Of a stretch of DNA of 54,048 nucleotides, positions 10,055-30,014 are shown one piece after another. The DNA is from a virus (Duplodnaviria > Caudoviricetes): the IMG/VR virus record IMGVR_UViG_3300042864_000277, positions 1-54,048 of that record, one strand, 5' to 3'. Position 1 is the stretch's first letter; each line of letters opens with the position of its first letter. Made by a program: the position numbers and the translations under genes. The notes under the pieces are model-generated. The model was not told where the DNA came from and did not search any database. It was given only the letters and a program-made list of their open reading frames with translations.

Positions 10055-11794
10055 TTGGCAGATAAAGATTTTAAAGTAAAAGCAGGACTTGATCTTGGAA
10101 CCCCCCTTCCTTTAACAGAGGGCGGAACAGGACAAACGTCTGCTAGTAATGCTTTAAATGCAATATTACCAGTTCAGACATCTGCAGCTAATAAATTTTT
10201 ACAATCAGATGGAACGTCTACATCCTGGGTTGCAGCAGCAGTTGTAAATAATGCCACATTCACAGGATCTTCAATTGTTATTCCATCGGGAACAAGTGAG
10301 GAAAGACCAGCATCTCCAGTAACTGGAGCAATTAGATTAAATACAACATCTGGAACATTAGAATTTTATACAGGCACAGCATGGGGATCAATTGCTACTT
10401 TTCCACAACCACCAACATCCCTTGTTGCAACAAATGTTGGCACATCTCGTGCATATAATAATGGTGCAGCATCTGTAGCATTTACTACAGCATCTGCAGA
10501 TGGCGGATCAACAATTACTGGATATACAATTACATCAAATCCAGGTTCATTTACTGCAACGGGTTCAACATCTCCAATAGTTGTAACAGGATTACAGTCA
10601 GCTACTTCATATACATTTACTGGTACAGCAACAAATTCAATTGGTTTAAGCACAGTGTCTTCAGCCTCATCTAGTATTACCGCTACTACTGTTCCACAAG
10701 CACCAACACCTGGAACAGCAACTGCAACGAATACAACTACTGCAAGCTTGCCATTTACAGCTGGTGCTACTGGTGGCTCAACAATAACAAATTATAAATA
10801 TTCAACTGACGGAACAACATATACAGCACTTTCACCAGCTCAAACTACTAGCCCACTTTCAATTTCTGGACTTACATCTGGAACAACTTATACATTTTAT
10901 ATAAAAGCAGTTAATACTAACGGTGATTCTGCAGCATCTACTGCGTATAATTCATTAGCAATGCCTTTGCCAACAGCTCCAAGCATAGAGTATATTGTTT
11001 TAGCTGGAGGCGGCGCTGGAGGTGCGGCATATAATTCAAATGCCTCTGGCGGAGGTGGTGCAGGAGGAATGCTTACTGGAAATCAAGCTATATCTGCTGG
11101 TACAACTTACATAATTACTGTTGGTACAGGAGGTCCTACAACAGTAGGAAATGCTAACACTGGTTTATATTCTTCAGCACCTAGCGGAACCGCAGGAAAC
11201 GCATCTTCTTTTGGTAATTTAATTTCAACTACTGGTGGCGGAGGCGGCGGCGGAGACGCATTGGAGTCAGTTGATAACTACGGGCAACCTAACTGGAGGG
11301 CCGTTGAAGGCGGCGCTGGAGGAAGCGGTGGAGGTGGGTCCAAACGAGGTGGTGGTGGCTATAATGGTGGTTCAGGAATTGCTGGACAAGGAACAAGTGG
11401 CGGTACTGGCGGCTCTAATAATGGTGGTGGCGGCGGAGGAGGAACTAACGCTGGAACTAGCAATGGAGCTGGCGGAAATGGAAAGTCTGGATTTGATTCA
11501 GTAGTACGTGCAGGCGGCGGTGGTGGAGGAACTGTTGGCTCTGCAGGTAACGGCGGTGGTGGTGCAGGAGGCAATGTTACAGGAGCAGCTGGATCAGCTA
11601 ATCTAGGAGGTGGTGGTGGTGGCACAGGACAAGGAACAAGCAGAAGTGGAGGAAGTGGTGGCTCTGGAATTGTAAAATTTAGATATGCAAGCAATTATGC
11701 CGCACCAAATTCCACAAACGGCTCACCAACAGTCAACAATGATGGTGGATACAGAACATATACATTTAATGGAAGCGGACAGGTGACTTTCTAA
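10055..11794 (+). CDS. Fibre protein: KDFKVK anchor, two FN3 repeats and a glycine-rich domain
   Basis: TTG start, MADKDFKVKAGL; IPSGT..ERP....G.IR.NT motif; FN3 repeats; IEYIVLAGGG...GGSGIVKFRY. Confidence 0.75.
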   Translation: MADKDFKVKAGLDLGTPLPLTEGGTGQTSASNALNAILPVQTSAANKFLQSDGTSTSWVAAAVVNNATFTGSSIVIPSGTSEERPASPVTGAIRLNTTSGTLEFYTGTAWGSIATFPQPPTSLVATNVGTSRAYNNGAASVAFTTASADGGSTITGYTITSNPGSFTATGSTSPIVVTGLQSATSYTFTGTATNSIGLSTVSSASSSITATTVPQAPTPGTATATNTTTASLPFTAGATGGSTITNYKYSTDGTTYTALSPAQTTSPLSISGLTSGTTYTFYIKAVNTNGDSAASTAYNSLAMPLPTAPSIEYIVLAGGGAGGAAYNSNASGGGGAGGMLTGNQAISAGTTYIITVGTGGPTTVGNANTGLYSSAPSGTAGNASSFGNLISTTGGGGGGGDALESVDNYGQPNWRAVEGGAGGSGGGGSKRGGGGYNGGSGIAGQGTSGGTGGSNNGGGGGGGTNAGTSNGAGGNGKSGFDSVVRAGGGGGGTVGSAGNGGGGAGGNVTGAAGSANLGGGGGGTGQGTSRSGGSGGSGIVKFRYASNYAAPNSTNGSPTVNNDGGYRTYTFNGSGQVTF

Positions 11795-12159
11795 TGGCAC
11801 ATTTTGCACAATTAAACGAAAATAATATTGTAACTAATGTTATTGCCGTACATAACAATGAATTATTAGTTGAAGGTGTTGAATCAGAGTCTAAAGGTAT
11901 TGAATTCTGTCAGTCATTATTTGGTGGCAATTGGATTCAAACATCTTACAATGCAAGAATTAGACAAAGATATGCTGGAGTAGGTTTTGCATATTTGCCA
12001 AATAAAGATATTTTTATTGAGCCATCACAATACAATGGCTGGGTTATTGACGAAGAGCTAGAAGATTGGGTTCCGCCATTTCCAAAACCAGACAGTGGAT
12101 CTTGGGTCTGGAACAATGAGACAATAAACTGGCAAGAGCTAGATGAGCAATTGCCATAA
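11794..12159 (+). CDS. MAHFAQL-type small partner protein of glycine-rich fibre proteins
   Basis: MAHFAQL...WIQTSYN..IR.RYAG.G..Y....D.FI.P...W; TAATG overlap with the upstream gene. Confidence 0.7.
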   Translation: MAHFAQLNENNIVTNVIAVHNNELLVEGVESESKGIEFCQSLFGGNWIQTSYNARIRQRYAGVGFAYLPNKDIFIEPSQYNGWVIDEELEDWVPPFPKPDSGSWVWNNETINWQELDEQLP

Positions 12160-12697
12160 AGAAAAATTTATAACAGTAGGTTTTCCAAGAAGTGGCAATA
12201 CATATTTAAATTATTCTTTTAGGTCTTTATATTATCCAGAAAGCACACCCTATAAAGTTTTTCATAGTGCTTCAACAATAGATAAATTTGATCATCTATT
12301 TATACCATTTAGAAACCCACTAGACAGCATAGCCTCTTGGAATAACTACCCATCAAATTGTGAAATAGAATTAGACATTAAATACTATATTAGATTTTAT
12401 AGTCATGTAATGAATAATTTAAACAAAGTAACACTTATGAATTTTGATTGCTTTACTAAAGATATAGAGTATATAAAAGGCAAAGTTAAAGAATCTATAG
12501 ATATTGAAAGTATTTATAGCGTTAGCGATGAACAAATAAAAGCTTATATGATACAAGACAAAAAAAATAAAAATCTTCCTCTATCTAATCCAGATAATGT
12601 TTCTATAATTAAAGAAACATTGGTAAATACAGAAATCTTTAAAGAGTGTCTTGTTATATATGATAACTTATTAAAGGCTACCTCTCACATACACTAG
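12143..12697 (+). CDS. Sulfotransferase-like protein
   Basis: 5'-PSB-like loop GFPRSGNTYL and 3'-PB-like motif FRNPLDSIAS. Confidence 0.65.
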   Translation: MSNCHKEKFITVGFPRSGNTYLNYSFRSLYYPESTPYKVFHSASTIDKFDHLFIPFRNPLDSIASWNNYPSNCEIELDIKYYIRFYSHVMNNLNKVTLMNFDCFTKDIEYIKGKVKESIDIESIYSVSDEQIKAYMIQDKKNKNLPLSNPDNVSIIKETLVNTEIFKECLVIYDNLLKATSHIH

Positions 12698-12724
12698 ACA
12701 TTAGCATGTATAAAATGCTATGAT
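12695..12724 (+). promoter_or_regulatory. Sigma70-type promoter
   Basis: TAGACA-18 nt-TATGAT with an extended TG, upstream of the 12760 ORF. Confidence 0.5.
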
Positions 12725-12759
12725 ATAAGTATTGCATAACCCTAGTTTAAGGATATAAA

Positions 12760-13482
12760 ATGGTAGATATAGTTTTTACAAATATGATGGGTATTGAAGA
12801 AATATTTCCCCCCGAACCCGCTTTTAAAAATATACCAGATTGGTATAAAGATATAGAATCTTATATTGGCGGAGAAAAAAAACCAACTGGAAATGGCAAT
12901 ACAACAGGAACAATTAAACGTTGTATGCCAGTATTTGATGTAATGAATGCAGGATATATTATTAAAACTCCAGCAGATGTTTACGTATCACAAAAAGAGA
13001 TGTTTGATGAAAACGGTGATTCAATGGGTAAAAGACCATGGTATGAGTGGGCAAATTTTAATTTAATTGAATTTCATCCAGTAGAACAAGCACCAAATCA
13101 TCCAAATAGAAATGGTCATCAAGAGGCATATCCTAAATGGATTAATCCATGGGCAATTAAAACACCACCAGGATATTCCGTTCTATTTGTACAACCATTT
13201 CATAGACCATCAGATTTTACTATTTTGCCAGGAATTGTAGATACTGATACCTATTCAGCTCCCGTCAATTTTCCATTTGTGCTAAACGATATAAATTTTG
13301 AAGGCATTATTCCAGCGGGAACAGCAGTAGCTCAGGTTATTCCTTTTCAAAGAGAAGACTGGCAGATGTCTATTGGCAAAAATGAAGAGATTATGGAAAC
13401 AAGCAAAATTACAACAAAGCTTAGAACACGTTTCTTTGACTCGTATAAAACTCAATACAGACAGACAAAAGAATATAGATAA
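12760..13482 (+). CDS. Hypothetical phage protein
   Basis: 240-aa ORF with TIKRCMPVFD, KWINPW.IKTPPGYS.LF..P and G.VDTD motifs. Function not assignable. Confidence 0.6.
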   Translation: MVDIVFTNMMGIEEIFPPEPAFKNIPDWYKDIESYIGGEKKPTGNGNTTGTIKRCMPVFDVMNAGYIIKTPADVYVSQKEMFDENGDSMGKRPWYEWANFNLIEFHPVEQAPNHPNRNGHQEAYPKWINPWAIKTPPGYSVLFVQPFHRPSDFTILPGIVDTDTYSAPVNFPFVLNDINFEGIIPAGTAVAQVIPFQREDWQMSIGKNEEIMETSKITTKLRTRFFDSYKTQYRQTKEYR

Positions 13483-14240
13483 TGATCATACAAGTTATTG
13501 GTTTGCCTGGAAGTGGAAAAACCACACTTGCTATCGCTCTTAAAGAGCGTATAAATGCCATTCATTTAAATGCAGACTATGTTCGTGCAACAATTAATTC
13601 AGATCTTGGATTTACAATTGAAGATAGAATTGAGCATGCACGTAGATTGGGTGAAATTGCACGTATGCTAGATGGGCAAGGGCATACAGTAATTGTAGAT
13701 TTTATTTGCCCAACAAGCCTAACTCGTGCAGCATTTGGCAAACCAAACATTTTGATATTTATGGATACATTAGCAGAGGGACGCTTTGAAGATACAAATA
13801 AAATGTTTGAGCGTCCTACAGAATTTGATGCATCTTTTATTAGTCATAATTTAAATGCTGAAGAAAAGGCATCATATATAATTGAAAAGTTTAATCTTCA
13901 TGATTGGTCCGCTCCAACAACTCTCATGCTTGGAAGATACCAGCCATGGCATGAAGGACATCATGCATTATATAAAGAGGCGGGGAAAAGAACAGATCAA
14001 GTACTTCTTGGAGTACGTAATACATATAACACAAGCGAGAAAGATCCTCTTAAATTTGATCAAGTAAAAGAATATATTGCCAAAGATGAATTTATGGATG
14101 GAGCATTAGTATTAAGATTGCCTAATATTACTAATATTGTATATGGAAGAGACGTAGGATATAAGATTGAACAAGTAGATTTAGGTGCAGATATTCATGC
14201 TATTTCTGCAACGCAAAAACGCAAGGAAATGGGTATATGA
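13482..14240 (+). CDS. cysC: Adenylylsulfate (APS) kinase fused to an HxGH nucleotidyltransferase domain
   Basis: Walker A GLPGSGKTT, LNADYVR, DLGFTIEDRIEHARR and FICP are CysC-like. The C-terminal half has GRYQPWHEGH and ISATQKR. Confidence 0.75.
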   Translation: MIIQVIGLPGSGKTTLAIALKERINAIHLNADYVRATINSDLGFTIEDRIEHARRLGEIARMLDGQGHTVIVDFICPTSLTRAAFGKPNILIFMDTLAEGRFEDTNKMFERPTEFDASFISHNLNAEEKASYIIEKFNLHDWSAPTTLMLGRYQPWHEGHHALYKEAGKRTDQVLLGVRNTYNTSEKDPLKFDQVKEYIAKDEFMDGALVLRLPNITNIVYGRDVGYKIEQVDLGADIHAISATQKRKEMGI

Positions 14241-14536
14241 GTAAATTAAGCTATGTTTTAAAAATTGCAAAAGACAGATGGCTTCGCCCATATGATGATA
14301 TTATTCTACGTTTTAATACTAAGGCAGAAAAAGACAATCCTCTGGTCTGGAGAGTTTATATAAATGGTGTGGAGCTACTTGCAAGCGGATTTGAAATTCA
14401 TGGATATATGCATGATCAAATTTCCTATGAAGGCGAAGTTAAAAAGTTTAATGTTGGATGCAAGGGGCGTGTACGTTGGGACGGAACAAAGGCTGTTATA
14501 ATAACATCTAAAAAAGAGCCAGATACAGCATTTTAA
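14237..14536 (+). CDS. Hypothetical protein
   Basis: 99-aa ORF with an ATGA overlap with the cysC-like gene. Confidence 0.6.
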   Translation: MSKLSYVLKIAKDRWLRPYDDIILRFNTKAEKDNPLVWRVYINGVELLASGFEIHGYMHDQISYEGEVKKFNVGCKGRVRWDGTKAVIITSKKEPDTAF

Positions 14537-14554
14537 AGCCTAATAATCCCATTA

Positions 14555-14563
14555 TGATATAAT
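14555..14563 (+). promoter_or_regulatory. Extended -10 promoter
   Basis: TGATATAAT in the intergenic gap before the 14597 ORF. Confidence 0.5.
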
Positions 14564-14596
14564 TATCATATATCAATAAGGGGATAGTGAACCAAG

Positions 14597-15103
14597 TTGT
14601 CAAATAAAGATTTTAAGGTTAAAAATAAGCTGCAGGTAGCAGGTATTACTTCTGCTGGCCCGCTTGTCTCAGATGCCTCTGGTAATGTAGATTCAACTTC
14701 TTCAATTGCCACACAATTTGGCGGAACAGGAACAACAACATCTCCCAACTCTGGAGAATTTTTATATTCATCTGCTGGAACTACATATGCTGCAACTTCA
14801 TTATCAACCACCGTCCCTCTTTGGTCGGCAGTATCAGTAAGCTCAAATATAACACTTTCTAAATGGAATAACTATATGGTTGACACATCTGCTGTAAGAA
14901 CATTGACTCTTCCAGCATCACCATCATCTGGAGATGAAATTCATATTTTTGATGTAACTGGAACAGCAGCAACAAATAAAATTACAGTAAGTTCAAATTC
15001 AAATAAAATAAATGGTTCAGTTCAAGATTTAGACATAGATGCAAATAATGCAGCAGCTGTTTTAATCTATACTGGATCAACTTATGGATGGAGAGTAGGA
15101 TAA
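14597..15103 (+). CDS. Fibre anchor/adaptor protein (KDFKVK motif)
   Basis: TTG start, MSNKDFKVKNKL; C-terminal YMVDTS..RTLTLPASPSSGDEI.I.D...GW fibre module. Confidence 0.65.
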   Translation: MSNKDFKVKNKLQVAGITSAGPLVSDASGNVDSTSSIATQFGGTGTTTSPNSGEFLYSSAGTTYAATSLSTTVPLWSAVSVSSNITLSKWNNYMVDTSAVRTLTLPASPSSGDEIHIFDVTGTAATNKITVSSNSNKINGSVQDLDIDANNAAAVLIYTGSTYGWRVG

Positions 15104-17103
15104 TGGCATTAAGTTATACAAGTTTATCTGGGGGCGGCGGAGCAGCAACAAATGATTTTAATATAAATGTAGGATCTTCTGGCTACACAAATGTTTCACT
15201 GACAACAACTTTTCCAGCAGGTAGTTACATATGTACATCTACTCTATCAGACGCCACACTTGATATTTATTTAATTAATGAAGACGGAACAAGCGCAGGA
15301 TATGCAAATGCAACAACTTCATCAACTACTGTTGTTGCATCTAAATCTTTTAATAAGGTTGTTATTTATGGAGCTGCAAATAATGACATTTTAACATTTC
15401 AATTTTTATATGTTTTTAATCCTACCGATGTAGGAACAAATGTTGCAGCAGCTGCAAGATTAATATCAACAGGCACTGCCTCTCTTCCAAATATAAATAA
15501 TACAACTGTTTTAACTGGCCAAAATTTTGCTACTGATGTTGAGGTAACATTTACTGGATCAGATTTAGTCGCTAGAAATGCAAAATCTGTTACTAGAACC
15601 TCTTCTACATCTTTAACTGTTACAAGACCAGATGATATGCCAACTACATATTCACCCTATACAATTACTGCAACAAATCCTGGAATTTCTGTACCAACAT
15701 CAACAAATGCACATAAACTAATAAATGCAATAACAGTTGGAGCAGCACCTGTCTGGGTCACATCTGCTACACTTCCAACGTTTTTTACAAATCTTGCATA
15801 TTCAACAACTTTATCTGCAACAGATGCTGACGGAAGCTCTTCAATAACATATTCACTTGCATCTGGATCCCTTCCTTCTTCAATGACATTAAATTCTTCA
15901 ACTGGAGTAATTTCTGGAACCTCTAACTCTGCTTCTGCTGGATCATTTACTATTAGGGCTACCGACTCTGGCGGCAACTTTGTAGATAGAGCATTTACAA
16001 TGGCAAGACAAACAGTTCCAGTAGCTCCAACATCAGTTGTAGGAACAAAAACTTCAACAGTAGGTGCCATTTCTGTTGCATTTACAGCACCAACAACTGG
16101 ATACACACCTACATCTTATACCGTTACATCTAGTCCAGGCTCAATTACTGGAACAGGCTCTGCCTCACCTATTATTGTTTCAGGATTAACTGGTGGAACT
16201 AGCTATACATTTACGGTAACTTCTACCTCTGCACAAGGAACATCTGCAGCAAGCTCTGCATCTTCTGCAGTTACAGCTCCAACTACATTAACAACAACAT
16301 TTAATTCCAGTGGCACTTTTACAAACCCAGGAGTATCAAATGTTGAGGTTCTAGTTGTTGGCGGCGGCGGCGGCGGAGGGTTCGGCGGAGATAATCTATC
16401 TGGTGGATTTGGCGGCGGCGGCGGCGGCGCAGGCGGAGTACAGTATTCTGCCGCTCTTTCAATTAGCGCAAACACTAACTACGCAGTAACAGTTGGCAAT
16501 GGCGGCGGAGGCGATACTAGCGGAAACTCTTCAGTATTTGCAAATCTAACTGCCCTTGGAGGAGAAAGAGGAGCAAATAGTACTGCAAATGCTAGAGTAA
16601 CTGCAAATAGTGGATTTGGTTCAGGTGGCGGAGGTGCGACAGTTTCAAATAATACTATTAATACTAATAGACATTTAGGAGGAACAGGAACATCTGGGCA
16701 AGGAAAAGCTGGATCTACCGCATATGCAAACAATGCTGGTGGAGGAGGCGGTTCACTAAATGCCTCTCCAAACTCAAGTGGAAATACTGTATCTACTGCT
16801 TATTACGGCGTACCAGGCGGAGCCGTAACTTACTTTGGAAGTAAATACGCAGCAGGTGGTGGAGGAGCAAATCCTTATTCTCCATACACATCAGGTGACG
16901 GATTGGGCGGGGCATCTGGCTCTGCTGGAGATTCCCGTTTCGATAACTTTAGAGCTTTTACATTGCCTGGTGCAGGAGCGAATGGTACTGGTACTGGAGG
17001 CGGAGGAGGTTGTGGATGGGTAAATATTATTAATTCAAATTCACAAAATACATCTGGTGCAAGCGGTGGTAATGGGGTGGTGATCTTAAAATATGTCGGT
17101 TAA
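15103..17103 (+). CDS. Ig-like/FN3 plus glycine-rich fibre tip protein
   Basis: Likely start is ATG 15103 (TAATG overlap). It has a putative Ig module (ATDADG...YSLASGSLP...LNSSTGVISGT), an FN3 repeat and a Gly-rich domain ending GGNGVVILKY. Confidence 0.7.
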   Translation: MALSYTSLSGGGGAATNDFNINVGSSGYTNVSLTTTFPAGSYICTSTLSDATLDIYLINEDGTSAGYANATTSSTTVVASKSFNKVVIYGAANNDILTFQFLYVFNPTDVGTNVAAAARLISTGTASLPNINNTTVLTGQNFATDVEVTFTGSDLVARNAKSVTRTSSTSLTVTRPDDMPTTYSPYTITATNPGISVPTSTNAHKLINAITVGAAPVWVTSATLPTFFTNLAYSTTLSATDADGSSSITYSLASGSLPSSMTLNSSTGVISGTSNSASAGSFTIRATDSGGNFVDRAFTMARQTVPVAPTSVVGTKTSTVGAISVAFTAPTTGYTPTSYTVTSSPGSITGTGSASPIIVSGLTGGTSYTFTVTSTSAQGTSAASSASSAVTAPTTLTTTFNSSGTFTNPGVSNVEVLVVGGGGGGGFGGDNLSGGFGGGGGGAGGVQYSAALSISANTNYAVTVGNGGGGDTSGNSSVFANLTALGGERGANSTANARVTANSGFGSGGGGATVSNNTINTNRHLGGTGTSGQGKAGSTAYANNAGGGGGSLNASPNSSGNTVSTAYYGVPGGAVTYFGSKYAAGGGGANPYSPYTSGDGLGGASGSAGDSRFDNFRAFTLPGAGANGTGTGGGGGCGWVNIINSNSQNTSGASGGNGVVILKYVG

Positions 17104-19962: not shown

Positions 19963-20699
19963 CAAACTCATGCTTTGAAATATTTCATACAGACAGCGGA
20001 AATAAATTTAGAAATCAGTCTTATGACAATGTTTTAAGTGAAATGGCGGGAATACCAAGATTAACCTCACCTACAATATACTTGAATACAGTAGAAAAAG
20101 TAAATCAATTTTTAACCGATACACCTAAATTTAAGGTAAATACTGTAGAAGATTATTGCCAACCAGGAGAAACATTTCCACCTAGCTCTGGAGTAATTGG
20201 TGTATGGGCAAGCAACTATATTGCATATAAAAACTTTCTAGAAACAGACAAAGATATACTTATTTTGTTTGAAGACGATATCGTTCTTAGTAAAAATTTT
20301 GCATATATACTAAATTCATATTTAATGGAGTTGCCAGAAGATTGGGAATACTTCTCCCCGTTTGTCCCAGATGACTCACTATTTGCTTATAATGAAATAA
20401 AGCATTCTTTTAATAGTGACTACCGTACTTGCCGCTCTTATCAGCAATGGTCATGCGCCACATATGTGGTCAACAGGGCGGGAGCTAAAAAGGCTATAGA
20501 AAATATAGAGTCTGTGGGAATAACAGCCCCTATTGATTGGTACATATTTAATTTTAGAATGAAGCAAGAAGACAGTCAAATTAGGTTTAACACCTATACA
20601 ATTAAGCCAAATTCATATAGGCCAGTCAAGCTTTTATTGGAAGCCGCAGCCTATAGCTCAATTCATAAAGGAAGCACTGAGGAGCTTAATAGACTATGA
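19956..20699 (+). CDS. Glycosyltransferase family 25-like
   Basis: G.IG...S...AY, LILFEDD, LPEDWE, YVVNRAGAKK and PIDW match the GT25 motif pattern. Confidence 0.7.
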   Translation: MLANSCFEIFHTDSGNKFRNQSYDNVLSEMAGIPRLTSPTIYLNTVEKVNQFLTDTPKFKVNTVEDYCQPGETFPPSSGVIGVWASNYIAYKNFLETDKDILILFEDDIVLSKNFAYILNSYLMELPEDWEYFSPFVPDDSLFAYNEIKHSFNSDYRTCRSYQQWSCATYVVNRAGAKKAIENIESVGITAPIDWYIFNFRMKQEDSQIRFNTYTIKPNSYRPVKLLLEAAAYSSIHKGSTEELNRL

Positions 20700-20717
20700 C
20701 TCTTATAACATTTAAGG

Positions 20718-20726
20718 TGGTATAAT
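20718..20726 (+). promoter_or_regulatory. Extended -10 leaderless promoter
   Basis: TGGTATAAT, with ATG 20733 6 nt downstream. Confidence 0.6.
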
Positions 20727-20732
20727 TTTAAA

Positions 20733-21983
20733 ATGGGCTCAACGTCAAAGGGTTTTAGTTTTCCCGCTTATTCAGATCCGCCAGATATTCCTGCGGACAT
20801 TCAACTACTTGCACAAAATATTGATACATATCTAACAGCAAATCCAGGCGCACAAGGATCTGTTGGAACGCAGGGTTCTCAAGGCGTAGTTGGACCACAA
20901 GGAGTTCAGGGAACTCAAGGTGTTCAAGGAACAACTGGATCGCAAGGAACGCAAGGAACTACTGGAGCACAAGGAACTATTGGTGCACAAGGTGTTCAAG
21001 GGTCTGTTGGCGCACAAGGTGTTCAAGGATCTCTTGGTGCACAAGGTGTTCAAGGAGCTACTGGCCCACAAGGATTGATTGGAACACAGGGATCTTTAGG
21101 TACACAAGGATCTGCTGGAACGGGCGTAAATATTTTAGGTACGTATGCAACTTTGGGTGCATTACAATCTGCTCACCCAACAGGAACACTTGGCGATGGA
21201 TATTTAATTGGATTAAATCTTTATGTTTGGACTGGCTCCCAATGGACAGATTCTGGTCCAGTTCAAGGACCGCAAGGAACTACTGGCGTACAAGGAACTA
21301 CTGGTGCACAAGGTGCAGTTGGAACACAAGGCGCATTTGGAACACAGGGTTCAGTTGGTGCACAAGGAACTGATGGAGCACAAGGAAATACTGGCGCACA
21401 AGGAACTACTGGTGCACAAGGTGCAGTTGGAACACAAGGCGCAGTTGGAACACAGGGTTCAGTTGGTGCACAAGGAACTGATGGCACACAAGGAACTACT
21501 GGAGCACAAGGAACTACTGGCGCACAAGGCACAGTTGGAACACAAGGAACTTTAGGCGCAACTGGAACAATACAGACTAACTCGGCGGTAGTTGGATTAA
21601 TTGAAACAGCGAATGTAGTTGCAGCAGCAACATCATCTACCATAAATATGGATGTCACAACTTCAAGCGTTTGGTATTATACAACAGGTTCAACAAGTGC
21701 ATTTACTTTAAATGTTAGGGGAAGCTCAGGAACAACTCTTAATTCATTATTATCTACTGGACAATCAATTACCGTTGCATTTTTAAATACAACTGGAGCC
21801 TCAACAGCATCTTATCCATCAACATTTCAAATTGATGGGTCTACTCAAGGTAGCATAAAGTGGTTAAATGGAACGGCACCAACAGTTGGCAATGCCTCAT
21901 CAATAGACTCTTATATATATACAATACTTAAAACAGCATCTGCAACATATACTGTATTCGGATCACAAACTAAATACGCATAG
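20733..21983 (+). CDS. Collagen-like fibre protein
   Basis: Two G-X-Y tracts flank a small G.L.D.Y.I...LYVW.G..W module. The C-terminal beta domain has IKW..G.AP...D.Y.Y.I.KT. Confidence 0.8.
   Translation: MGSTSKGFSFPAYSDPPDIPADIQLLAQNIDTYLTANPGAQGSVGTQGSQGVVGPQGVQGTQGVQGTTGSQGTQGTTGAQGTIGAQGVQGSVGAQGVQGSLGAQGVQGATGPQGLIGTQGSLGTQGSAGTGVNILGTYATLGALQSAHPTGTLGDGYLIGLNLYVWTGSQWTDSGPVQGPQGTTGVQGTTGAQGAVGTQGAFGTQGSVGAQGTDGAQGNTGAQGTTGAQGAVGTQGAVGTQGSVGAQGTDGTQGTTGAQGTTGAQGTVGTQGTLGATGTIQTNSAVVGLIETANVVAAATSSTINMDVTTSSVWYYTTGSTSAFTLNVRGSSGTTLNSLLSTGQSITVAFLNTTGASTASYPSTFQIDGSTQGSIKWLNGTAPTVGNASSIDSYIYTILKTASATYTVFGSQTKYA
21294..21490 (+). repeat. Near-identical duplication with a 108-nt period in the collagen tract
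   Basis: The unit ggaactactggtgcacaaggtgcagttggaacacaaggcgca... begins at 21294 and again at 21402. Confidence 0.75.
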
Positions 21984-21997
21984 GGGGCGGAAGATAA

Positions 21998-23194
21998 ATG
22001 CCATTATTCCAATCGCTAGCTAGTTTATCTGCAAGAGGCTTAGTAAAGGTGGGAGCAAGTAAACCATTAGCTCCATCAATTACTTCTGTATCAACAATAA
22101 ATTCTACTTCAATAACATTAAACTACACACTTGGAAATGCTAATGGGTCTCCAATTACAACAATTGCAATTACATCATCTCCTTCAATAGCTCTTACTTA
22201 TACAAATACAGATCTAGATGGATCTCTAACAGTTTCTGGTACATTTGCAGCAAACCAGGCATATACATTTACAATGACTTCAACAAATGCATTTGGCACA
22301 AGTGATTCAAGCTCTTCATCAAGCTCATTAACCCCGCTTCTTGCAGCCACAGTAACTGGTGGAACACTATCTTCAGACGCAACACATTATTATAGAACAT
22401 TTACAAGCAGTAGCAACTTTGTTGTTTCGTCTGTTGCTGTAGATATTGAATATTTAGTTATAGCAGCTGGAGGTAGTGGTGGTTCAGGATTTGGTGGAGG
22501 AGGTGGCGCTGGAGGTGTAGCAACAGGCTCACAGTCTGCAGTTCTTGGAACATTAGTGGTTACTGTTGGAACTGGCGCACTTTCTTCTAATGATCAAGGA
22601 CTAAACGGTGGAGCATCATCCCTCGGTAATAATGTTAGTACAACTGGTGGAGGTGGAGGAGGAAGTCCAACAACAACACCAACTGAAGCAGGAAAAGCAG
22701 GTGGATCAGGCGGAGGCGGCGGTAGTAGCGGTTTTGTTGGATACAATAATGGTGGAACAGGAATTACTGGTCAAGGAAAAGCTGGAGGAAGAGGTTATAG
22801 AGCAAGTACACCAGTTAATGGAGGTATTGGATCTGGAGGCGGAGGCGGATACTCTAACGTAGGCCAGGACGGACCAGCTGGAGGATTCCTTGGTTGGGGA
22901 GGAAATGGAATATCTTCATACTCTGCTTGGGCAACAGCAACATCTACTGGCGTAGACGGATGGTATGCTGGCGGAGGATCAGGTTCTGGAGGATATATGT
23001 CAGGGATTACATATAATGCCTCAGGAGGTTATGGGGGCGGAGGAAATACTACCTACAACGCTGGATTTTCTAATGGTGGAGCAAATGGCACTGGTTCTGG
23101 AGGAGCAGGTGTAGCATTTTATGGAAACCCTTCTGGTGCAGGCGGTAACGGTATAGTAATTGTTAGATATCTTAAATCTGCGGTAGGTGGATAA
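21998..23194 (+). CDS. FN3 plus glycine-rich fibre tip protein
   Basis: FN3-like repeat, YYRTFTSS, IEYLVIAAGG and C-terminal GGNGIVIVRY. Confidence 0.7.
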   Translation: MPLFQSLASLSARGLVKVGASKPLAPSITSVSTINSTSITLNYTLGNANGSPITTIAITSSPSIALTYTNTDLDGSLTVSGTFAANQAYTFTMTSTNAFGTSDSSSSSSSLTPLLAATVTGGTLSSDATHYYRTFTSSSNFVVSSVAVDIEYLVIAAGGSGGSGFGGGGGAGGVATGSQSAVLGTLVVTVGTGALSSNDQGLNGGASSLGNNVSTTGGGGGGSPTTTPTEAGKAGGSGGGGGSSGFVGYNNGGTGITGQGKAGGRGYRASTPVNGGIGSGGGGGYSNVGQDGPAGGFLGWGGNGISSYSAWATATSTGVDGWYAGGGSGSGGYMSGITYNASGGYGGGGNTTYNAGFSNGGANGTGSGGAGVAFYGNPSGAGGNGIVIVRYLKSAVGG

Positions 23195-25068
23195 TGTCAT
23201 ATAAATCTATAGTTCTTTCTGACTATCCTATTGGATATTATCCATTAGATGATATAACAACAGTTGATGTTGCAAACTATACAGCTCTTGAAAGTTCATA
23301 TGCCACATATCAAGCAATTTTAGATGATACCCTTATAACTTCTTATGCAAGTATTTATGGAGACATTGCATATGATCACTCTGGATGTGAAAATGATGCA
23401 GTATATGGCGGGGATCCAATAACTGAAATTCTTCCAATAACAATTGGTAATTCAAGAGCAACAAAGATAGGTAATGCAAACTCTATACAGTATTCATTTT
23501 TAAAAGATTATACAGCTTCTGCAACTTCCAGCCAATTTGCAACAATATACTCTTCAGATAATGATTTTACCCTTGAAGCCTGGATACATCCAGTTTTTAC
23601 TACAAATGGATTAACAAGCATTCTAGCAGATGCAGATGAGGCTATTGGGATATTTTATGATAATGAAAATATTGTTTTTAAAGTACAGGCCGAATATGTA
23701 GAACATACTCTACCTTATACAGATAAGGTTATTCATATTGTGGGCATATATAGCCCCACACTGCTATCTCTTTACATAGATGGGGTTTTAGTAAATACAT
23801 CTACAATTTCTAATTTTCAATTTAGCAACACTTCCCTTGAATTATCAAGTGGCCCAACAACAGATGCAGGAGACTCCTTCTTAATAAACAGCGTTGCTGT
23901 ATACAGATATAGCCTATCTCAATCTCAGATTCAAAATCATTATAATCAAAATATAGGCCCTGCCCCAATTCAAATTGTAGATCCAGACAACGGTGAGCTA
24001 TTTGAGTTATATGACGAAAATATCTCAACACAATTTATTTATTCATACCCTGGAAACAAATCATGGGATTACTTCATTACTGATGATTTATATTATAGTG
24101 ATGCAGAACAATCCCTGTCTATTAAAAAATCAACTGGTTCTAAAACAGTTGTGCTTACAGATTATATTTCTTTACCCTATGCCGCCGTTTTAGATTCTTC
24201 AAAGATTGAGTGGGACGGAACAAGTGGAATAACAGTAGAAGTTTCAGTAGATGGTACAACATATCAAGCATGTCAAAATGGACAAAAGATTCCACAATTT
24301 ACAATTGCAAGCTTTAATGGCAACAAGCAAATCTATTTAAAGATAACTTTGGCAACAACAGATAGCAGCAAATATTTGCCTAAGATATCTACCCTTCAAA
24401 TTAAATTCTATAATAATCAAATTGCATATGCTTCAAATAGCTCTAGCTATATTTCTACATTAGAGGGACTTGCTGGAGTCTCAGTATATGATATAACAAT
24501 TGGAAATAACAAGCATCCAATTCTTTCAAGAAATGCCAGAAACGGAATAAGAACAATTCAAAGCTCTGGATTTTATATCAATACAACCTCCTCAGTTAGC
24601 ACATTAGAATTTTTCTATACCCCATATGCATTGACAGTCAGCGGGCTAATATCAACAGCATCTAGTGGATCATATGCTGCCTCAAATTATTCATGGAGCA
24701 ACGTGGGAACTATAAGCAAAACCAACATATCTGCAATATATGTAAACAACGTAAATAAGTCGGCAGAAACAGATGTTGCAAATATATTTAAATTGGGACA
24801 AATGCACCACGTTGTAATTGTTTTTACTGCTGCAGTTAGCGGGCAAATAAAAATTGCACATTCTTCATCTGGCTCAGTTCCTGCCTTATTTCAAAATTTA
24901 GCTCTATATCCAAGCCAATTTACATTGTCAAAAGCATCTGAGCACCATGACCTGTATGTATATGGATCGACTTCTACGGTAGCGGATGATAATTCTCCGT
25001 CCATAACCGTGACAGAAAACTCTGTAGACTACTATGATAATGACTGGGTTGTAATCCAAAACACATAA
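23194..25068 (+). CDS. Concanavalin A/LamG-like domain virion protein
   Basis: PIGYYPLDD, FTLEAWI, HIVGIY...LYIDG and VAVYRYSLS; a second HHVVIVF motif near the C-terminus. Confidence 0.7.
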   Translation: MSYKSIVLSDYPIGYYPLDDITTVDVANYTALESSYATYQAILDDTLITSYASIYGDIAYDHSGCENDAVYGGDPITEILPITIGNSRATKIGNANSIQYSFLKDYTASATSSQFATIYSSDNDFTLEAWIHPVFTTNGLTSILADADEAIGIFYDNENIVFKVQAEYVEHTLPYTDKVIHIVGIYSPTLLSLYIDGVLVNTSTISNFQFSNTSLELSSGPTTDAGDSFLINSVAVYRYSLSQSQIQNHYNQNIGPAPIQIVDPDNGELFELYDENISTQFIYSYPGNKSWDYFITDDLYYSDAEQSLSIKKSTGSKTVVLTDYISLPYAAVLDSSKIEWDGTSGITVEVSVDGTTYQACQNGQKIPQFTIASFNGNKQIYLKITLATTDSSKYLPKISTLQIKFYNNQIAYASNSSSYISTLEGLAGVSVYDITIGNNKHPILSRNARNGIRTIQSSGFYINTTSSVSTLEFFYTPYALTVSGLISTASSGSYAASNYSWSNVGTISKTNISAIYVNNVNKSAETDVANIFKLGQMHHVVIVFTAAVSGQIKIAHSSSGSVPALFQNLALYPSQFTLSKASEHHDLYVYGSTSTVADDNSPSITVTENSVDYYDNDWVVIQNT

Positions 25069-25094
25069 TTTTGTCATTTAGCCTGACAAAAAGC

Positions 25095-25123
25095 TGGACT
25101 TTGATACCAAAGAATGGTAAAAT
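25095..25123 (+). promoter_or_regulatory. Sigma70-type promoter (leaderless or nearly so)
   Basis: TGGACT-17 nt-TAAAAT with an extended TG; ATG 25132 8 nt downstream. Confidence 0.55.
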
Positions 25124-25131
25124 AAAATACT

Positions 25132-25494
25132 ATGGAGATTAAAAAGGTCAATCAGACAGTAATTGAGGAAACCACGCTTGGAATCTATGTGTGGGAAATG
25201 CCAGACGGAAGATGGATTGGCGACGATGAGGGTAATTACTTATCAATAGCATCTCATAAAGGAAATAAGGCAAACATGGCGGCATTGGCATCAGAGGTGT
25301 CATCCTTTGGAATTGATGTTGGTCAGCCTAAATTTTTATCCAATAGACGTAAGATTGATGATGAACAGTTTGAGTATCAAAAGGCAAGGCTTGATCAAGG
25401 ATTAATTCCTGACCCATTTGATATTGGAAATTACAAAGATGAGCTAGCGGCTTATAATAAAAAGAATCCAACAATAGGTGGACCAGGGAGATAG
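25132..25494 (+). CDS. Hypothetical protein preceding the portal
   Basis: 120-aa ORF (G.YVW.MPDG.W.GD) with its own promoter. Confidence 0.65.
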   Translation: MEIKKVNQTVIEETTLGIYVWEMPDGRWIGDDEGNYLSIASHKGNKANMAALASEVSSFGIDVGQPKFLSNRRKIDDEQFEYQKARLDQGLIPDPFDIGNYKDELAAYNKKNPTIGGPGR

Positions 25495-25496
25495 TC

Positions 25497-27080
25497 ATGG
25501 AGTTTATTGAAGATAACGATTTAGAGTCAACAGATAGAATTCAAATTTCTTCTGCCTCTGATTTATTTCAATTAAAGAAAGAAAAAGATCATTCAGATCC
25601 CTTTATGATTGAAGAGGATGACTTAAGAAAAATATCTGGACTAAGCTCCACTTTCCGCCGTAAGATGGGAAGAGAGTTCTCTAAAGCGTTTGCAGGCAGA
25701 GAAGGAACTGGAACTCAGCAAAACTTATTACAGCAGGCGGTTACTGGCTATGCAATGTTTGACCTTGTGGAGCCACCATATAACCAAGAGTACCTTTCAA
25801 GAATTTATGAAATCTCAACTTATAACTACGCAGCAATTAATGCGAAGGTAGCAAACATTGTTGGACTAGGTTATGATTTTTCTGAGACAAGAAAAACTAA
25901 CGACGCATTCGATTCTATTACAGACGACAAGCAATTAGAAAGAGCCCGCAGAAAGCTTAATAAATTAAAGCAAGACTTACAGCTGTGGCTTGATTCAACA
26001 AACGATGAAGATACTTTTACACAAACACTTATTAAGGTTTACACAGACTTAGAAGCAACTGGCAACGGCTACCTTGAAATCAGCAGAACAACTTCAGGCA
26101 ACATAGGATACATTGGACACATCCCAGCAAAGACAATGAGAGTACGTAGATTAAGAGACGGCTTTATTCAATTGCTTTACGGCAAGGCTGTTTACTTTAG
26201 AAACTTCGGAGACGTAGATACCGAGAGCCCAATCGCAGGCGGAGAAGACAGACCAAACGAAGTTATTCATTTAAAGAAATATACTCCAACAAATAACTAT
26301 TATGGAATACCAGACATTATTGCAGCACAGAACGCATTGGCTGGAAATGAATTTGCTGGTAAATATAACCTAGACTACTTTGAAAATAAGGCGGTCCCAA
26401 GATATATTATTACAGTAAAGGGGGCAAAGCTATCCCCAGAATCAGAAAGAAAATTGCTTGAATTTTTCCAGGTAGGCTTAAGAGGAAAAAATCACAGATC
26501 TTTATATATTCCTCTTCCAGCAGATAGCCCAGACTCAAAGGTTGAATTTAAGATGGAGCCAATTGAGGCTGGCACACAAGAATCTTCATTTAATCTTTAT
26601 CGCAAAGCAAATAGAGATGAAATTCTTTTGGCTCACCGTGTACCAATTAATAAAATTGGAACCCCAGAGGGTGTAAATTTAGCGGTGGCAAGAGATGCTG
26701 ATAAGACATTTAAAGAGCAAGTTTGTCGTCCAGCACAAATGACATTAGAGAAGAAATTAAATAAAATTATTGAAGAAAAGACAGATGCTCTTTCTCTTAA
26801 ATTCAATGAATTAACTCTTACAGATGAGGATACTCAATCTAAGATTGATGAAAGATATTTAAGAATGCAGGTAATTACTCCAAATGAAGTCCGTATTAGA
26901 AAGGGCATGATTCCTTTGGACGGCGGAGATGATATGGTTGAATTAAAGCCACAACAGCAGGCTGAAATTAGAGCACAGGCTAATAATACTCGTGTCAGAG
27001 ATCAACAAAGACAGGGTAATTCACCAGACATTTCAGGTGAAGGAAGAAATGCTCAGGGCGACGGAAGACAGGTTGAATAA
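25497..27080 (+). CDS. Phage portal protein
   Basis: D.EATGNGYLEI.R, EVIHLK.Y....YYG.P, YF.N.A.P, I..AHRVP..IG and TPNEVR...G..P..GGD motifs; position before protease and capsid. Confidence 0.9.
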   Translation: MEFIEDNDLESTDRIQISSASDLFQLKKEKDHSDPFMIEEDDLRKISGLSSTFRRKMGREFSKAFAGREGTGTQQNLLQQAVTGYAMFDLVEPPYNQEYLSRIYEISTYNYAAINAKVANIVGLGYDFSETRKTNDAFDSITDDKQLERARRKLNKLKQDLQLWLDSTNDEDTFTQTLIKVYTDLEATGNGYLEISRTTSGNIGYIGHIPAKTMRVRRLRDGFIQLLYGKAVYFRNFGDVDTESPIAGGEDRPNEVIHLKKYTPTNNYYGIPDIIAAQNALAGNEFAGKYNLDYFENKAVPRYIITVKGAKLSPESERKLLEFFQVGLRGKNHRSLYIPLPADSPDSKVEFKMEPIEAGTQESSFNLYRKANRDEILLAHRVPINKIGTPEGVNLAVARDADKTFKEQVCRPAQMTLEKKLNKIIEEKTDALSLKFNELTLTDEDTQSKIDERYLRMQVITPNEVRIRKGMIPLDGGDDMVELKPQQQAEIRAQANNTRVRDQQRQGNSPDISGEGRNAQGDGRQVE

Positions 27081-27097
27081 CTTTACTCAACCACTAT

Positions 27098-27126
27098 TTG
27101 CCTTTTTATCTACAAATAGATAAAAT
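27098..27126 (+). promoter_or_regulatory. Leaderless promoter of the head operon
   Basis: TTGCCT-17 nt-TAAAAT, with ATG 27134 7 nt downstream. Confidence 0.65.
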
Positions 27127-27133
27127 TAAGCAT

Positions 27134-28444
27134 ATGAACATTGAAAAATCTAACTGGTCTTCAAATGGAAATAACCTCCATCTATCAGTCCCCTTCACAA
27201 AAGTAAATCGTGAGAAGAGAACTGTTTCAGGTTTTGCAACACTAGACAATATTGATCAAACTGGCGATGTAGTTACAGCAGAGGCCAGCATGAAAGCATT
27301 TGAAAGATTCCGTGGAAATCTAAGAGAAATGCATCAGCCACTTGCAGTTGGCAAGGTTGTATCATTTAAGCCAGAAACTTTCTATGACCCAATTTCAAAA
27401 GCTTTCTATAACGGTGTTTATGTTACATCTTATATTTCAAAAGGCGCACAAGACACATGGGAAAAGGTTTTAGATGGCACCCTAGCAGGATTTTCAATCG
27501 GCGGAAAAATTTTAGAATCAGACAACGAAGTTAACAAGTCAAATGGTGAGACAGTTCGTTTCATTAAAGACTATGAACTAGTTGAACTTTCAATTGTAGA
27601 TTCACCAGCAAATGAACTGTGCAACATCTTATCAATTGAGAAGATGAACGGACAGATGATATTTAAAGGTATGGCGGCAGATGTAGTTACAGAAAATATT
27701 TTCTATTGCGAAGAAAGTAACTCTGTTTTTGTATCAACAGACAAGACATTAGATTCACCAATTTCTGGTAAGCCAGCAACTTTAATCGGTTGGGTAGAAT
27801 CATCAGATGTAAACAAGTCAAAAGAGATAGATAGAATTCTTGATTTATACAAGTCAAGATCCACGTTGCCTGAAACACAAACAATTGCAAAACAGGCAAA
27901 CGCAGAAGGAGGTAATGAAGTGTCAGAAAATACAGAAAACACTACAGTTGAAGAGACTGTTGTTGAAGAAGCACCTGTTGTTGAAGAAACACCAGCTGCT
28001 GAAGAAGCTCCTGCAGAAGATGCAGTAGCAGACGCTTCTGCTGAAACTCTGGAAAAAGCAGCCGACGTATCAGAAGTTGAGGTTGATGAACCTGATTTTG
28101 CAAAGATGTTGGGCGATCTTAAAGGCTTTTTCTCAGAAACTCTAAGCAAGGCTACAGATGCAAATGCAGCGCAGGTTAAGACTGTTACAGAAACAGTTGA
28201 AACTTTCAGCAAGAGCATTGATGGCCGAATCACAGAGCTAGCAGAACAACACGCAGTCCTTTCAAAGGCTGTTGAAGATATCAGAAACACGATTGATGGC
28301 GTACAAAAGCGTGTCGATGCAGTAGAAGGTGAGACTGCAATTAAGAAGTCCTCAGACCTTGGCGGGTCTCAGGAAGTAAGTACAATAAAGAAATCAAAAT
28401 GGAACGGTTCTTTCCTCGGTTCCGTAAACGAATTAATTAGATAA
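27134..28444 (+). CDS. Prohead protease with a C-terminal scaffold region
   Basis: Likely start is ATG 27134. V.GFAT...D..GD, REMH, GFSIGG and ELSIVDSPAN are HK97-type protease motifs. The C-terminus is acidic and coiled-coil-like. Confidence 0.85.
   Translation: MNIEKSNWSSNGNNLHLSVPFTKVNREKRTVSGFATLDNIDQTGDVVTAEASMKAFERFRGNLREMHQPLAVGKVVSFKPETFYDPISKAFYNGVYVTSYISKGAQDTWEKVLDGTLAGFSIGGKILESDNEVNKSNGETVRFIKDYELVELSIVDSPANELCNILSIEKMNGQMIFKGMAADVVTENIFYCEESNSVFVSTDKTLDSPISGKPATLIGWVESSDVNKSKEIDRILDLYKSRSTLPETQTIAKQANAEGGNEVSENTENTTVEETVVEEAPVVEETPAAEEAPAEDAVADASAETLEKAADVSEVEVDEPDFAKMLGDLKGFFSETLSKATDANAAQVKTVTETVETFSKSIDGRITELAEQHAVLSKAVEDIRNTIDGVQKRVDAVEGETAIKKSSDLGGSQEVSTIKKSKWNGSFLGSVNELIR
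27920..28444 (+). CDS. Nested in-frame scaffolding protein (internal GTG start)
   Basis: GGAGGT at 27908-27913 lies 6 nt before the in-frame GTG 27920, at the start of the E/A/P-rich region. Confidence 0.6.
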   Translation: MSENTENTTVEETVVEEAPVVEETPAAEEAPAEDAVADASAETLEKAADVSEVEVDEPDFAKMLGDLKGFFSETLSKATDANAAQVKTVTETVETFSKSIDGRITELAEQHAVLSKAVEDIRNTIDGVQKRVDAVEGETAIKKSSDLGGSQEVSTIKKSKWNGSFLGSVNELIR

Positions 28445-28464
28445 ACAAAGGTAGGTGAAAATAT

Positions 28465-29514: not shown

Positions 29515-29533
29515 TTTAGGATTAAATCCGCAA

Positions 29534-29570
29534 GAGAGGCCCCCAATTAATTTTGGGGGCTTCTCATTTT
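29534..29570 (+). terminator. Intrinsic terminator after the capsid gene
   Basis: gagaggcccccaa-ttaatt-ttgggggcttctc followed by atttt. Confidence 0.8.
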
Positions 29571-29580
29571 AATTTACTAA

Positions 29581-29589
29581 TGCTATAAT
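29581..29589 (+). promoter_or_regulatory. Extended -10 promoter
   Basis: TGCTATAAT upstream of RBS aaggag and ATG 29619. Confidence 0.55.
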
Positions 29590-29618
29590 TAATTGACCTA
29601 GAAAAAGGAGAATATAAG

Positions 29619-30014
29619 ATGTCATTCGACACCCTAAAGGTAGCAGAACTAAAAAAAATTGCAGAGGACTTTGCAGTTGAAACAACCAGCTTAAAGAACA
29701 AGAACGATATTATTGCAGCCCTAGCAGAAGAAGGCGTAACATGGGCAGTGTACGAACAAACAATTAAAAATATTGAGGAAGAGGCGGAAGAAATTGAAGT
29801 CCTTCCTAGATTTGATAAGAACCAGAAAATCACAGACGATATGGTTCTTGTTAGAATGACTAGAGAAAACTTCCGTTATGATATTATGGGAAAAACATTC
29901 ACCAAAGCGCACCCATTTGTAGCAATGTCTTCAGACGTAGCACAAGCGATCTTTGATAAAGAGGAGGGTTTTAGACCAGCTACACCAAAGGAAGCACAAG
30001 ACTTCTATAGCTAA
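29619..30014 (+). CDS. Hypothetical protein with a Rho-N/HeH-like N-terminus
   Basis: LKVAELKKIA.......K.K.DII..L pattern. Confidence 0.55.
   Translation: MSFDTLKVAELKKIAEDFAVETTSLKNKNDIIAALAEEGVTWAVYEQTIKNIEEEAEEIEVLPRFDKNQKITDDMVLVRMTRENFRYDIMGKTFTKAHPFVAMSSDVAQAIFDKEEGFRPATPKEAQDFYS

Follow-up and report, generated by a model that had tools for sequence, protein, structure and literature searches.

A compact fusion of an APS-kinase-like domain and an HxGH nucleotidyltransferase in a tailed phage, a candidate minimal PAPS synthase

A 252-amino-acid (aa) protein encoded by a tailed phage (Duplodnaviria; Caudoviricetes) is proposed here to be a synthase of 3′-phosphoadenosine 5′-phosphosulfate (PAPS) whose sulfurylase module is of another kind, and far smaller, than in known PAPS synthases. 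The DNA analyzed, referred to below as the window, comprises positions 1 to 54,048 (54,048 nucleotides) of IMG/VR record IMGVR_UViG_3300042864_000277. The gene is an open reading frame (ORF) at 13482..14240 on the plus strand, as are the other genes of the block 11794–14536 described below, and fuses an N-terminal domain resembling adenosine 5′-phosphosulfate (APS) kinase to a C-terminal minimal nucleotidyltransferase (NTase). Judging from sequence and genomic context, we consider it probable that the protein adenylylates sulfate and then phosphorylates the product at the 3′ position to give PAPS. The original prediction, made from the window sequence alone, had suggested such a miniature, non-canonical ATP sulfurylase within a minimal PAPS synthase, and gene fusions, a conserved gene row in marine bacteria and a neighboring sulfotransferase-like gene now give this idea a genomic basis. 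A broader proposal, which we hold slightly more readily than we doubt it, is that the NTase of about 110 residues is a third class of ATP sulfurylase that, with a lid-less kinase and often a DUF2061 protein, would form the smallest known sulfate-activation module, supply the missing sulfurylase of an order of streamlined marine Alphaproteobacteria, feed sulfotransferases in many other members of that class and be widely spread by phages. To our knowledge, only two kinds of ATP sulfurylase, Sat and CysDN, are established.

The N-terminal domain (residues 1–135, 13482..13886) matches the APS_kinase family PF01583 at residues 2–84 (E = 2.2e-16, 60.7 bits, cut-off 21.1), a match that spans only profile positions 4–91 of 152, and solved APS kinases align over residues 2–87 (2yvu, E = 1.3e-11). 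The NCBIfam apsK equivalog model TIGR00455 scores 61.2 bits, below its cut-off of 138.7. The P-loop GLPGSGKT (residues 7–14, 13500..13523), kept in at least 70–90% of 56 aligned fusions, and a D..R / LGF / R..E..RR region are in register with 2yvu, 4bzq and the CysC half of P0154, a relative described below. In the window protein this second region reads NADYVR...DLGF...RIEHARR (residues 30–55, 13569..13646) and aligns with the substrate-side helix-loop region of APS kinases, which we take to line the APS site; its D..R, F and R are kept across the family. Where the canonical LDGD has its first acidic residue, the window protein has N. The canonical mobile lid, seen in P0154 as RDPKGLYKKARAG, is absent: a stretch of 9–11 residues, FEDTNKMFERP (residues 102–112, 13785..13817), stands where the lid would be, its DT...F..P is conserved in the family, and the BLASTP alignment to the full CysC of P0154 ends at residue 77. 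A weak match of the kinase half to AAA_28 (E = 4.3e-5) is some 11 orders of magnitude poorer than that to APS kinase. As judged by these matches, the domain is APS-kinase-like, a divergent, lid-less relative of CysC and not an equivalog.

The C-terminal domain of about 107 aa (residues 146–252, 13917..14237) falls just under the Pfam cut-off of CTP_transf_like, PF01467 (E = 1.5e-3, 19.2 bits, cut-off 21), which is exceeded by relatives at bacterial loci L098 (30.3 bits) and L146 (22.3 bits). Models of NadM-type nicotinamide mononucleotide adenylyltransferase (NMNAT) match only at the start, in ~45 of their 175 positions (E = 8.7e-6); the NMNAT models PRK01153 and TIGR01527 score 25.4 bits (cut-off 127) and 20.9 bits (cut-off 181.2), covering only residues 148–189, and relatives reach 27–43 bits, again under the cut-offs, over the first ~45–75 positions. 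Sequence comparison with the PDB likewise points to the NadM/archaeal NMNAT type (2qjt, E = 2e-3), and the phosphopantetheine adenylyltransferase (PPAT) model PRK00777 gives 16.1 bits (cut-off 104). For the window protein, TIGR01510 (CoaD) was not among the 25 families shown of 40, and PF01747 (Sat) was not among the 15 families at E ≤ 1; nor is there room for a PUA domain.

An AlphaFold2 (AF2) model of residues 136–252, built from 66 homologues, has a mean predicted local distance difference test score (pLDDT) of 93.3 and a predicted TM-score (pTM) of 0.84. In a Foldseek comparison with the PDB, 36 of the 40 matches listed belong to the HxGH superfamily (PPAT, NMNAT, NadM/NadR, pantothenate synthetase and glycerol-phosphate cytidylyltransferase (GCT)), with query TM-scores (TMq) of ~0.43–0.55, mostly over 70–90 columns; the other four are a dehalogenase. 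The top match is the PPAT 3nv7 (E = 9.7e-4), and PPAT rows have TM-scores of ~0.5 over 75–80 columns at 9–21% identity.

The motifs agree with this placement. GRYQPWHEGH (residues 151–160, 13932..13961) is the HxGH nucleotide-binding motif, in which G, Q, P, H, G and H do not vary among 16 stand-alone NTases, and ISATQKR (residues 241–247, 14202..14222) is an ISxTxxR motif; throughout the NTase superfamily, HxGH and ISxT.R bind ATP. In the family alignments both motifs and three more arginines are invariant or nearly so. Among these residues, Arg179 lies in GVRNT (residues 177–181, 14010..14024; R44 of the domain alignment) and is family-invariant, and Arg223 lies in PNITNIVYGRDVGY (residues 214–227, 14121..14162), which carries the family signature PNIT..YGR.VGY with its invariant Y, G and R. 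Compared by eye, the order of WHEGH, YGRDVGY and ISATQKR is like that of PHLGH, IGRDHAG and ISGTKIR, as seen in canonical Sat and invariant in the Sat alignment. Kinship with Sat, or membership of its family, is not claimed, since profile–profile comparison with hhalign aligned the ISxT motif alone. The C-terminal domain belongs to the HxGH superfamily in pared-down form and stands outside the NMNAT, PPAT and Sat families. The original prediction thus described the protein correctly: the ORF carries its named motifs at residues 7–14, 151–160 and 241–247, the CysC-like half indeed lacks a RDPKGLYKKARAG-type segment, the C-terminal half is an HxGH/ISxT NTase by motif and fold, and its motif is nearer NMNAT than Sat, as NadM-type model matches, NMNAT and PPAT folds and the hhalign result all indicate.

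The fusion belongs to a large family. PHROG family phrog_10255 matches it over its full length (E = 2.7e-61). Among 8,000 candidates scored, 7,161 clusters at 90% identity had E ≤ 1e-3, the top 120 being 82–95% identical, and an exhaustive search gave 4,748 representatives at 50% identity with the same threshold. At least 588 stretches were confirmed as relatives in a scan of viral sequences, and 80 viral loci carry fusion relatives at 84–96% identity. A scan of genomes with an 11-row alignment as query confirmed 355 relatives, mostly in Alphaproteobacteria and including isolates of Chelatococcus, Microvirga, Rhizobium and Enterovirga. Public names for the family are adenylyl-sulfate kinase, cytidyltransferase-like protein, and NMNAT or PPAT; public pipelines call the stand-alone NTase NMNAT, and the matches in a protein atlas were viral 'cytidyltransferase' clusters only, with no functional information.

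For selection analysis the window gene was compared with 72 phage relatives, those among the 80 loci in which the gene was located. Amino-acid identity is 97.9% in the NTase half, with a ratio of nonsynonymous to synonymous substitutions (dN/dS) of 0.010, and 79.0% in the kinase half, with a dN/dS of 0.114; dS is ~1.4–1.5 in both. Both halves are under purifying selection, and the NTase is the most constrained part of the protein and no remnant. These values bear on the notion that the C-terminal domain is a non-catalytic nucleotide-binding or oligomerization module regulating the kinase, the mirror image of those ATP sulfurylases that carry inactive APS-kinase-like domains. Such a role would suit a domain so small and, in the window copy, just below its Pfam cut-off; it fits poorly with the invariance of HxGH and ISxT.R, with the extreme constraint, and with the occurrence of the NTase on its own or fused to DUF2061 without a kinase, and we give it very little credence.

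Domain architectures tie the NTase to APS kinase. With hidden Markov models (HMMs) built here, the kinase–NTase fusion was found in 67 of 80 genome loci and a stand-alone NTase in the other 13; a second viral set of greater diversity also had the fusion in 67 of its 80 loci (63 as kinase–NTase, four as kinase–kinase–NTase) and a stand-alone NTase in ten, seven of these adjoining a separate kinase gene; three loci of this set have DUF2061–NTase fusions. The order is reversed, NTase then kinase, in P0168 and P0253. In P0154 an NTase 52% identical to that of the window (E = 2e-38) precedes a full canonical CysC, which scores 233.6 bits with TIGR00455 (cut-off 138.7) over profile positions 4–180 of 184. 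Because the NTase is fused to kinases in both orders, and also to a canonical CysC, Rosetta-stone logic suggests that it acts together with APS kinase in making PAPS. A further fusion adds a likely user of the product: in Rhizobium sp. BK376 one ORF of 555 aa (L146:8723-10390) encodes Sulfotransfer_2 (31.3 bits, cut-off 22), then APS_kinase, then CTP_transf_like, and in RefSeq this triple fusion is a single gene in both Rhizobium sp. BK376 and Neorhizobium sp. P12A. The triple-fusion proteins, 536–555 aa long, bear only the public name 'adenylyl-sulfate kinase'.

Further evidence for the reaction comes from small marine alphaproteobacterial genomes, in which we found ten loci with a stand-alone NTase of 117–119 aa. 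In all nine marine loci with upstream DNA (L089, L090, L092, L093, L095, L097, L098, L107 and L116) the genes form one colinear row: sulfite reductase, CysH, DUF2061, a 167-aa kinase and the NTase. DUF2061 (for example, L098:9225-9497) lies directly upstream of the kinase in each of the nine, each gene of the L098 row was confirmed by Pfam, and siroheme genes lie further upstream (CobA in 8/9, CbiX in 7/9). The marine order is represented in the collection by 11 species genomes (G001–G011), order-level and family-level sets being identical. Across these 11, the NTase is present in ten and CysH in all, Sat (PF01747) is present in one, and a second strong PAPS_reduct match of the CysD kind is present in none. 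The sole Sat lies away from the operon, in a surface-glycan island with NeuB, PIG-L and glycerophosphotransferase genes. Assembly gaps are an improbable cause of ten independent misses of Sat when its pathway partners turn up every time. As read from gene content, the pathway would lack exactly one enzyme, the sulfurylase, yet hold one unassigned enzyme of the right superfamily, and this missing-gene pattern is among our reasons for proposing the mini-NTase as the sulfurylase. In addition, separate full-length CTP_transf_like genes of ~160 aa (4/5 genomes) and ~205 aa (3/5 genomes) are present, sizes that we take to be PPAT-like and NadD-like, respectively; with these genes present, the marine genomes probably do not depend on the mini-NTase for CoA or NAD.

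The same genomes weigh on the reading of the protein as a NadR-like NAD salvage enzyme that combines nicotinamide riboside kinase with NMN adenylyltransferase. GRYQPWHEGH does resemble the NadM/NadR motif, NMNAT models are the best matches of the NTase, the stand-alone form is publicly named NMNAT, and the kinase half has its weak match to AAA_28, presumably the family of the NadR kinase domain. The NMNAT matches nevertheless amount to 20–43 bits against cut-offs of 127–181 and end after the first ~45–75 positions, the kinase is far closer to APS kinase, and neither the fusion to canonical CysC, nor that to a sulfotransferase, nor a place in a cysI–cysH operon fits NAD synthesis; with a separate ~205-aa CTP_transf_like gene in three of five marine genomes, we regard NAD salvage as very unlikely.

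A different division of labor would leave the N-terminal domain as an APS kinase acting on host APS and make the C-terminal domain an adenylyl- or cytidylyltransferase for some other phospho-substrate (a sugar phosphate, glycerol phosphate or a phosphopantetheine-like compound) in the same sulfated-glycan or surface-modification pathway. By fold and sequence the domain is nearest to PPAT, NMNAT and GCT, some bacterial copies lie by eye in polysaccharide-type neighborhoods (L099), sulfotransferases are adjacent or fused, and the bacteria with fused forms may own a sulfurylase. The marine operon, however, contains only sulfate-reduction and siroheme genes, without glycan genes, and no other sulfurylase was found in 10 of the 11 marine genomes. 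The segments that hold large acceptors in NMNAT and PPAT are also missing from the domain, which aligns over ~75–83 columns and has 107 aa against 155–170, and the pairing with a kinase persists over both fusion orders and split forms. We consider this alternative unlikely. Less probable still, and to us hardly credible, is that the pair activates another oxyanion or builds another 3′-phospho-ADP-X cofactor, with selenate, phosphate or a small phosphonate as acceptor. The combination of an adenylyltransferase with a 3′-kinase is generic, and CoA synthase, made of PPAT and dephospho-CoA kinase, follows the same logic; the informative contexts, however, are all sulfur-specific (sulfite reductase, CysH, sulfotransferases and canonical CysC).

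A compact gene of 184 aa (12143..12697), two genes upstream of the fusion, is sulfotransferase-like. Across 32 homologues the motifs G.PRSGNT and RNP.D..IS.W are invariant, and these we take to resemble the 5′-phosphosulfate-binding (5′-PSB) and 3′-phosphate-binding (3′-PB) motifs. Sulfotransfer_1 matches 11 of the 32 homologues (best E = 4.1e-5), and the window's own protein has no Pfam match. Its AF2 model has a pLDDT of 90.1, and all 39 Foldseek matches listed are PAPS-dependent sulfotransferases, though weakly matched (E = 7.5e-4 to 4e-2, TMq 0.31–0.48). The protein is likely the PAPS consumer of this phage. It is far shorter than the 220–340-aa sulfotransferase chains of similar fold, its gene is located among tail-fiber genes, and the GC content of that gene is 0.263. 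The gene accompanies the fusion in only four of the 80 related loci, with one more at a distance. Among bacteria, Chelatococcus caeni has a gene matching Sulfotransfer_3 (E = 2.5e-19) immediately 5′ of the fusion.

Several observations weigh against our proposal. No ATP sulfurylase is among the 40 Foldseek matches listed for the NTase, which is nearest to NadM and archaeal NMNAT by sequence and to PPAT and NMNAT by fold. When 16 stand-alone NTases were compared with 23 Sat proteins, hhalign aligned only ISxT.IR, over 20 columns and with a probability of 31%; ISATQKR is thus the sole stretch matched to Sat. The correspondence of GRD with Sat was seen by eye only, and its D varies: P0262 has K at this position, and the marine alphaproteobacteria have G. 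Sat is present in one of the 11 marine genomes, which are small (0.6–1.2 Mb) and of unreported completeness. The CysH of the marine operon (L098:8515-9219) carries CC, CxxC and ECGIH, which we take to be the Fe–S signature of APS reductases, enzymes that would need no kinase. Nor was a kinase found in the three viral loci with DUF2061–NTase fusions (L192, L193 and L196; for example, L192:7767-8345). Finally, users of PAPS are often not recognizable. A recognizable sulfotransferase adjoins the fusion in a minority of the ~63 non-marine bacterial loci, a frequency that rests on single cases, and among five near-complete phage relatives (97–100% complete, 109–117 kb) CysH was found in none and sulfotransferase-like genes in only two, so that most phage relatives are without an identifiable PAPS consumer.

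In the mechanism that we propose, the C-terminal HxGH/ISxT NTase of ~107 residues would transfer AMP from ATP onto sulfate, giving APS and pyrophosphate, with the sulfate perhaps gripped by the family-specific Arg179 and Arg223. By homology, the lid-less APS-kinase-like domain would then phosphorylate the 3′-OH of APS to give PAPS. The equilibrium of ATP sulfurylase is very unfavorable, and coupling to the next step offsets it; the kinase step could draw the sulfurylase step forward in this way, with fusion of the two domains favoring the coupling. PAPS would be consumed by sulfotransferases, in this phage putatively by the 184-aa protein encoded within the tail-fiber gene region. DUF2061 may anchor the module to the membrane, as suggested by its adjacency and by the three DUF2061–NTase fusions.

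Within the window, the fusion lies in a tightly packed block of co-directional genes (11794–14536) with a GC content of 0.33, flanked by glycine-rich fiber genes with GC contents of 0.447 and 0.417. The block opens with a 121-aa gene (phrog_7759, 11794..12159), followed by the sulfotransferase-like gene and by a 240-aa gene (phrog_7084, 12760..13482) with no assigned function and with neither a Pfam nor a PDB match, whose last base is the first base of the fusion start codon. An identification of this 240-aa gene with the 'cysteine dioxygenase' of phage Sano was dropped, as there was no similarity (E = 0.21) and no PDB relative. Downstream, a 99-aa gene with no assigned function (14237..14536) overlaps the fusion stop codon by 4 nucleotides, and its homologue lies just 3′ of the fusion in nine of the 80 related loci. 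A promoter and terminator scan of 11500–15200 gave counts not above those in shuffled sequence, and a tRNA scan found none. The phage record has a CheckV completeness estimate of 45%, and the window, its structural half, encodes numerous fiber-like proteins together with a portal, a protease and a head protein. The fiber-like proteins at 10055–11794 and 15088–17103 have fn3 or Ig-like domains and a C-terminal glycine-rich Gly_rich_2 domain, and an ORF of 2,433 aa lies at 34316–41617. The stretch is contained in 24 sequencing runs, all of DNA and labeled freshwater or lake water, with no RNA run among them. A megablast search of window positions 20000–32000 against the phage collection gave no match, and hence no close cultured relative there.

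Related phage loci share neighbors that the window does not have. Directly 3′ of the fusion, 50 of the 80 phage loci (L003–L082) encode a 70-aa DUF2061 membrane protein (PF09834, E = 6.4e-23; for example, L061:8799-9008), and the upstream genes vary; DUF2061 was not found in the window. Of the 80 loci, 54 have a WhiB-like gene (WhiB1 5oay, E = 7.9e-6; for example, L077:10906-11190) close to the fusion, a hint that the hosts may be actinobacteria. Other genes near the fusion in these loci encode a staphylococcal-type nuclease (SNase), 2-oxoglutarate–Fe(II) (2OG-Fe(II)) oxygenases, an Asp/Arg hydroxylase-like protein, an inosine monophosphate dehydrogenase (IMPDH)/GMP reductase and a tryptophan halogenase-like protein. 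Of 15 frequent neighbor families tested, none was found in the window. A complete relative of 115.7 kb carries three tandem ORFs of 197–223 aa (G012:C1:31442-32922) that match sulfotransferase models; one of them scores above the Pfam cut-off for Sulfotransfer_1 and Sulfotransfer_3 alike, and the kinase–NTase gene of the same phage lies about 20 kb away.

In bacteria, ORFs resembling an ABC transporter, a glycosyltransferase and an aminotransferase were seen by eye near the copy in L099. Two further families recur beside, or fused with, the bacterial kinase–NTase genes, one of ~365 aa (L112:10378-11502, L115:5109-6200 and L101:10367-11455) and one of ~300–350 aa (the N-terminus of L126:8663-10354, and L154:8508-9566). 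A Pfam scan of the L112 protein and the L126 N-terminus gave no match. One of the two families begins with the P-loop-like IHIGMPRTASTT, which may be a sulfotransferase nucleotide loop.

If our reading is right, a sulfurylase of 107 residues would add a new class to the enzymes that open sulfur assimilation and every form of biological sulfation, and the sulfurylase gap of the marine alphaproteobacterial order would be explained. Thousands of entries now named adenylyl-sulfate kinase, cytidyltransferase-like protein, NMNAT or PPAT would need new names. Phages could then sulfate independently of the host, and small phage sulfotransferases among tail-fiber genes raise the possibility that a virion protein or glycan, or the host surface, is sulfated. 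A PAPS synthase of 252 aa could also serve as a reagent for in vitro PAPS regeneration. In titles and the opening parts of abstracts, a literature search that did not extend to subscription journals found the mini-NTase nowhere described as a sulfurylase.

Among known systems, NadM, NadR and archaeal NMNAT share the motifs GR.QP.H.GH and ISxT.R with the mini-NTase and are, alongside PPAT, its best neighbors in sequence and fold. Unlike them, it is without ~60 residues of the NMNAT fold and has sulfur genes rather than NAD genes as partners. CoaD provides the top Foldseek match and, through CoA synthase, a parallel for the pairing of an adenylyltransferase with a 3′-kinase, but four of five marine genomes keep a separate full-length CTP_transf_like gene of ~160 aa.

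In the CysDN route, the CysD sulfurylase works with the CysN GTPase, the latter being fused to CysC in the NodPQ type (PRK05506), and NodPQ with NodH is a precedent for pairing sulfate activation with a sulfotransferase. The kinase–NTase module would be similar in being a dedicated sulfate-activation module that accompanies alphaproteobacterial sulfotransferases, and differs in having neither a PP-loop CysD nor a GTPase. A study of freshwater phages reports, in the parts consulted here, 62 cysC genes, larger genomes in cysC phages and transcripts from a lake (PMC10914622). Those genes are annotated as adenylylsulfate kinase, as are relatives of the window gene, and they are treated as cysC only, the word 'sulfurylase' occurring 0 times in the main text; on the interpretation offered here, such lake-phage genes would be complete PAPS synthases and not steps reliant on host APS.

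The closest functional counterparts would be the PAPS synthases (animal PAPSS1/2, and the bacterial and fungal Sat–CysC fusions, for example PRK05537), which likewise join an APS kinase and an adenylyltransferase of the HxGH/HxxH superfamily in one polypeptide and carry out the two steps, sulfate to APS to PAPS, that we propose for the window protein. In the window protein, however, the adenylyltransferase has ~107 aa, with neither a PUA-like domain nor a PF01747 match, and the kinase is lid-less and, at 61 bits, falls well short of the 138.7 that the apsK model requires. The whole protein has 252 aa, compared with 630 aa for PAPSS1 chains and 546–573 aa for Sat–CysC fusions in the PDB.

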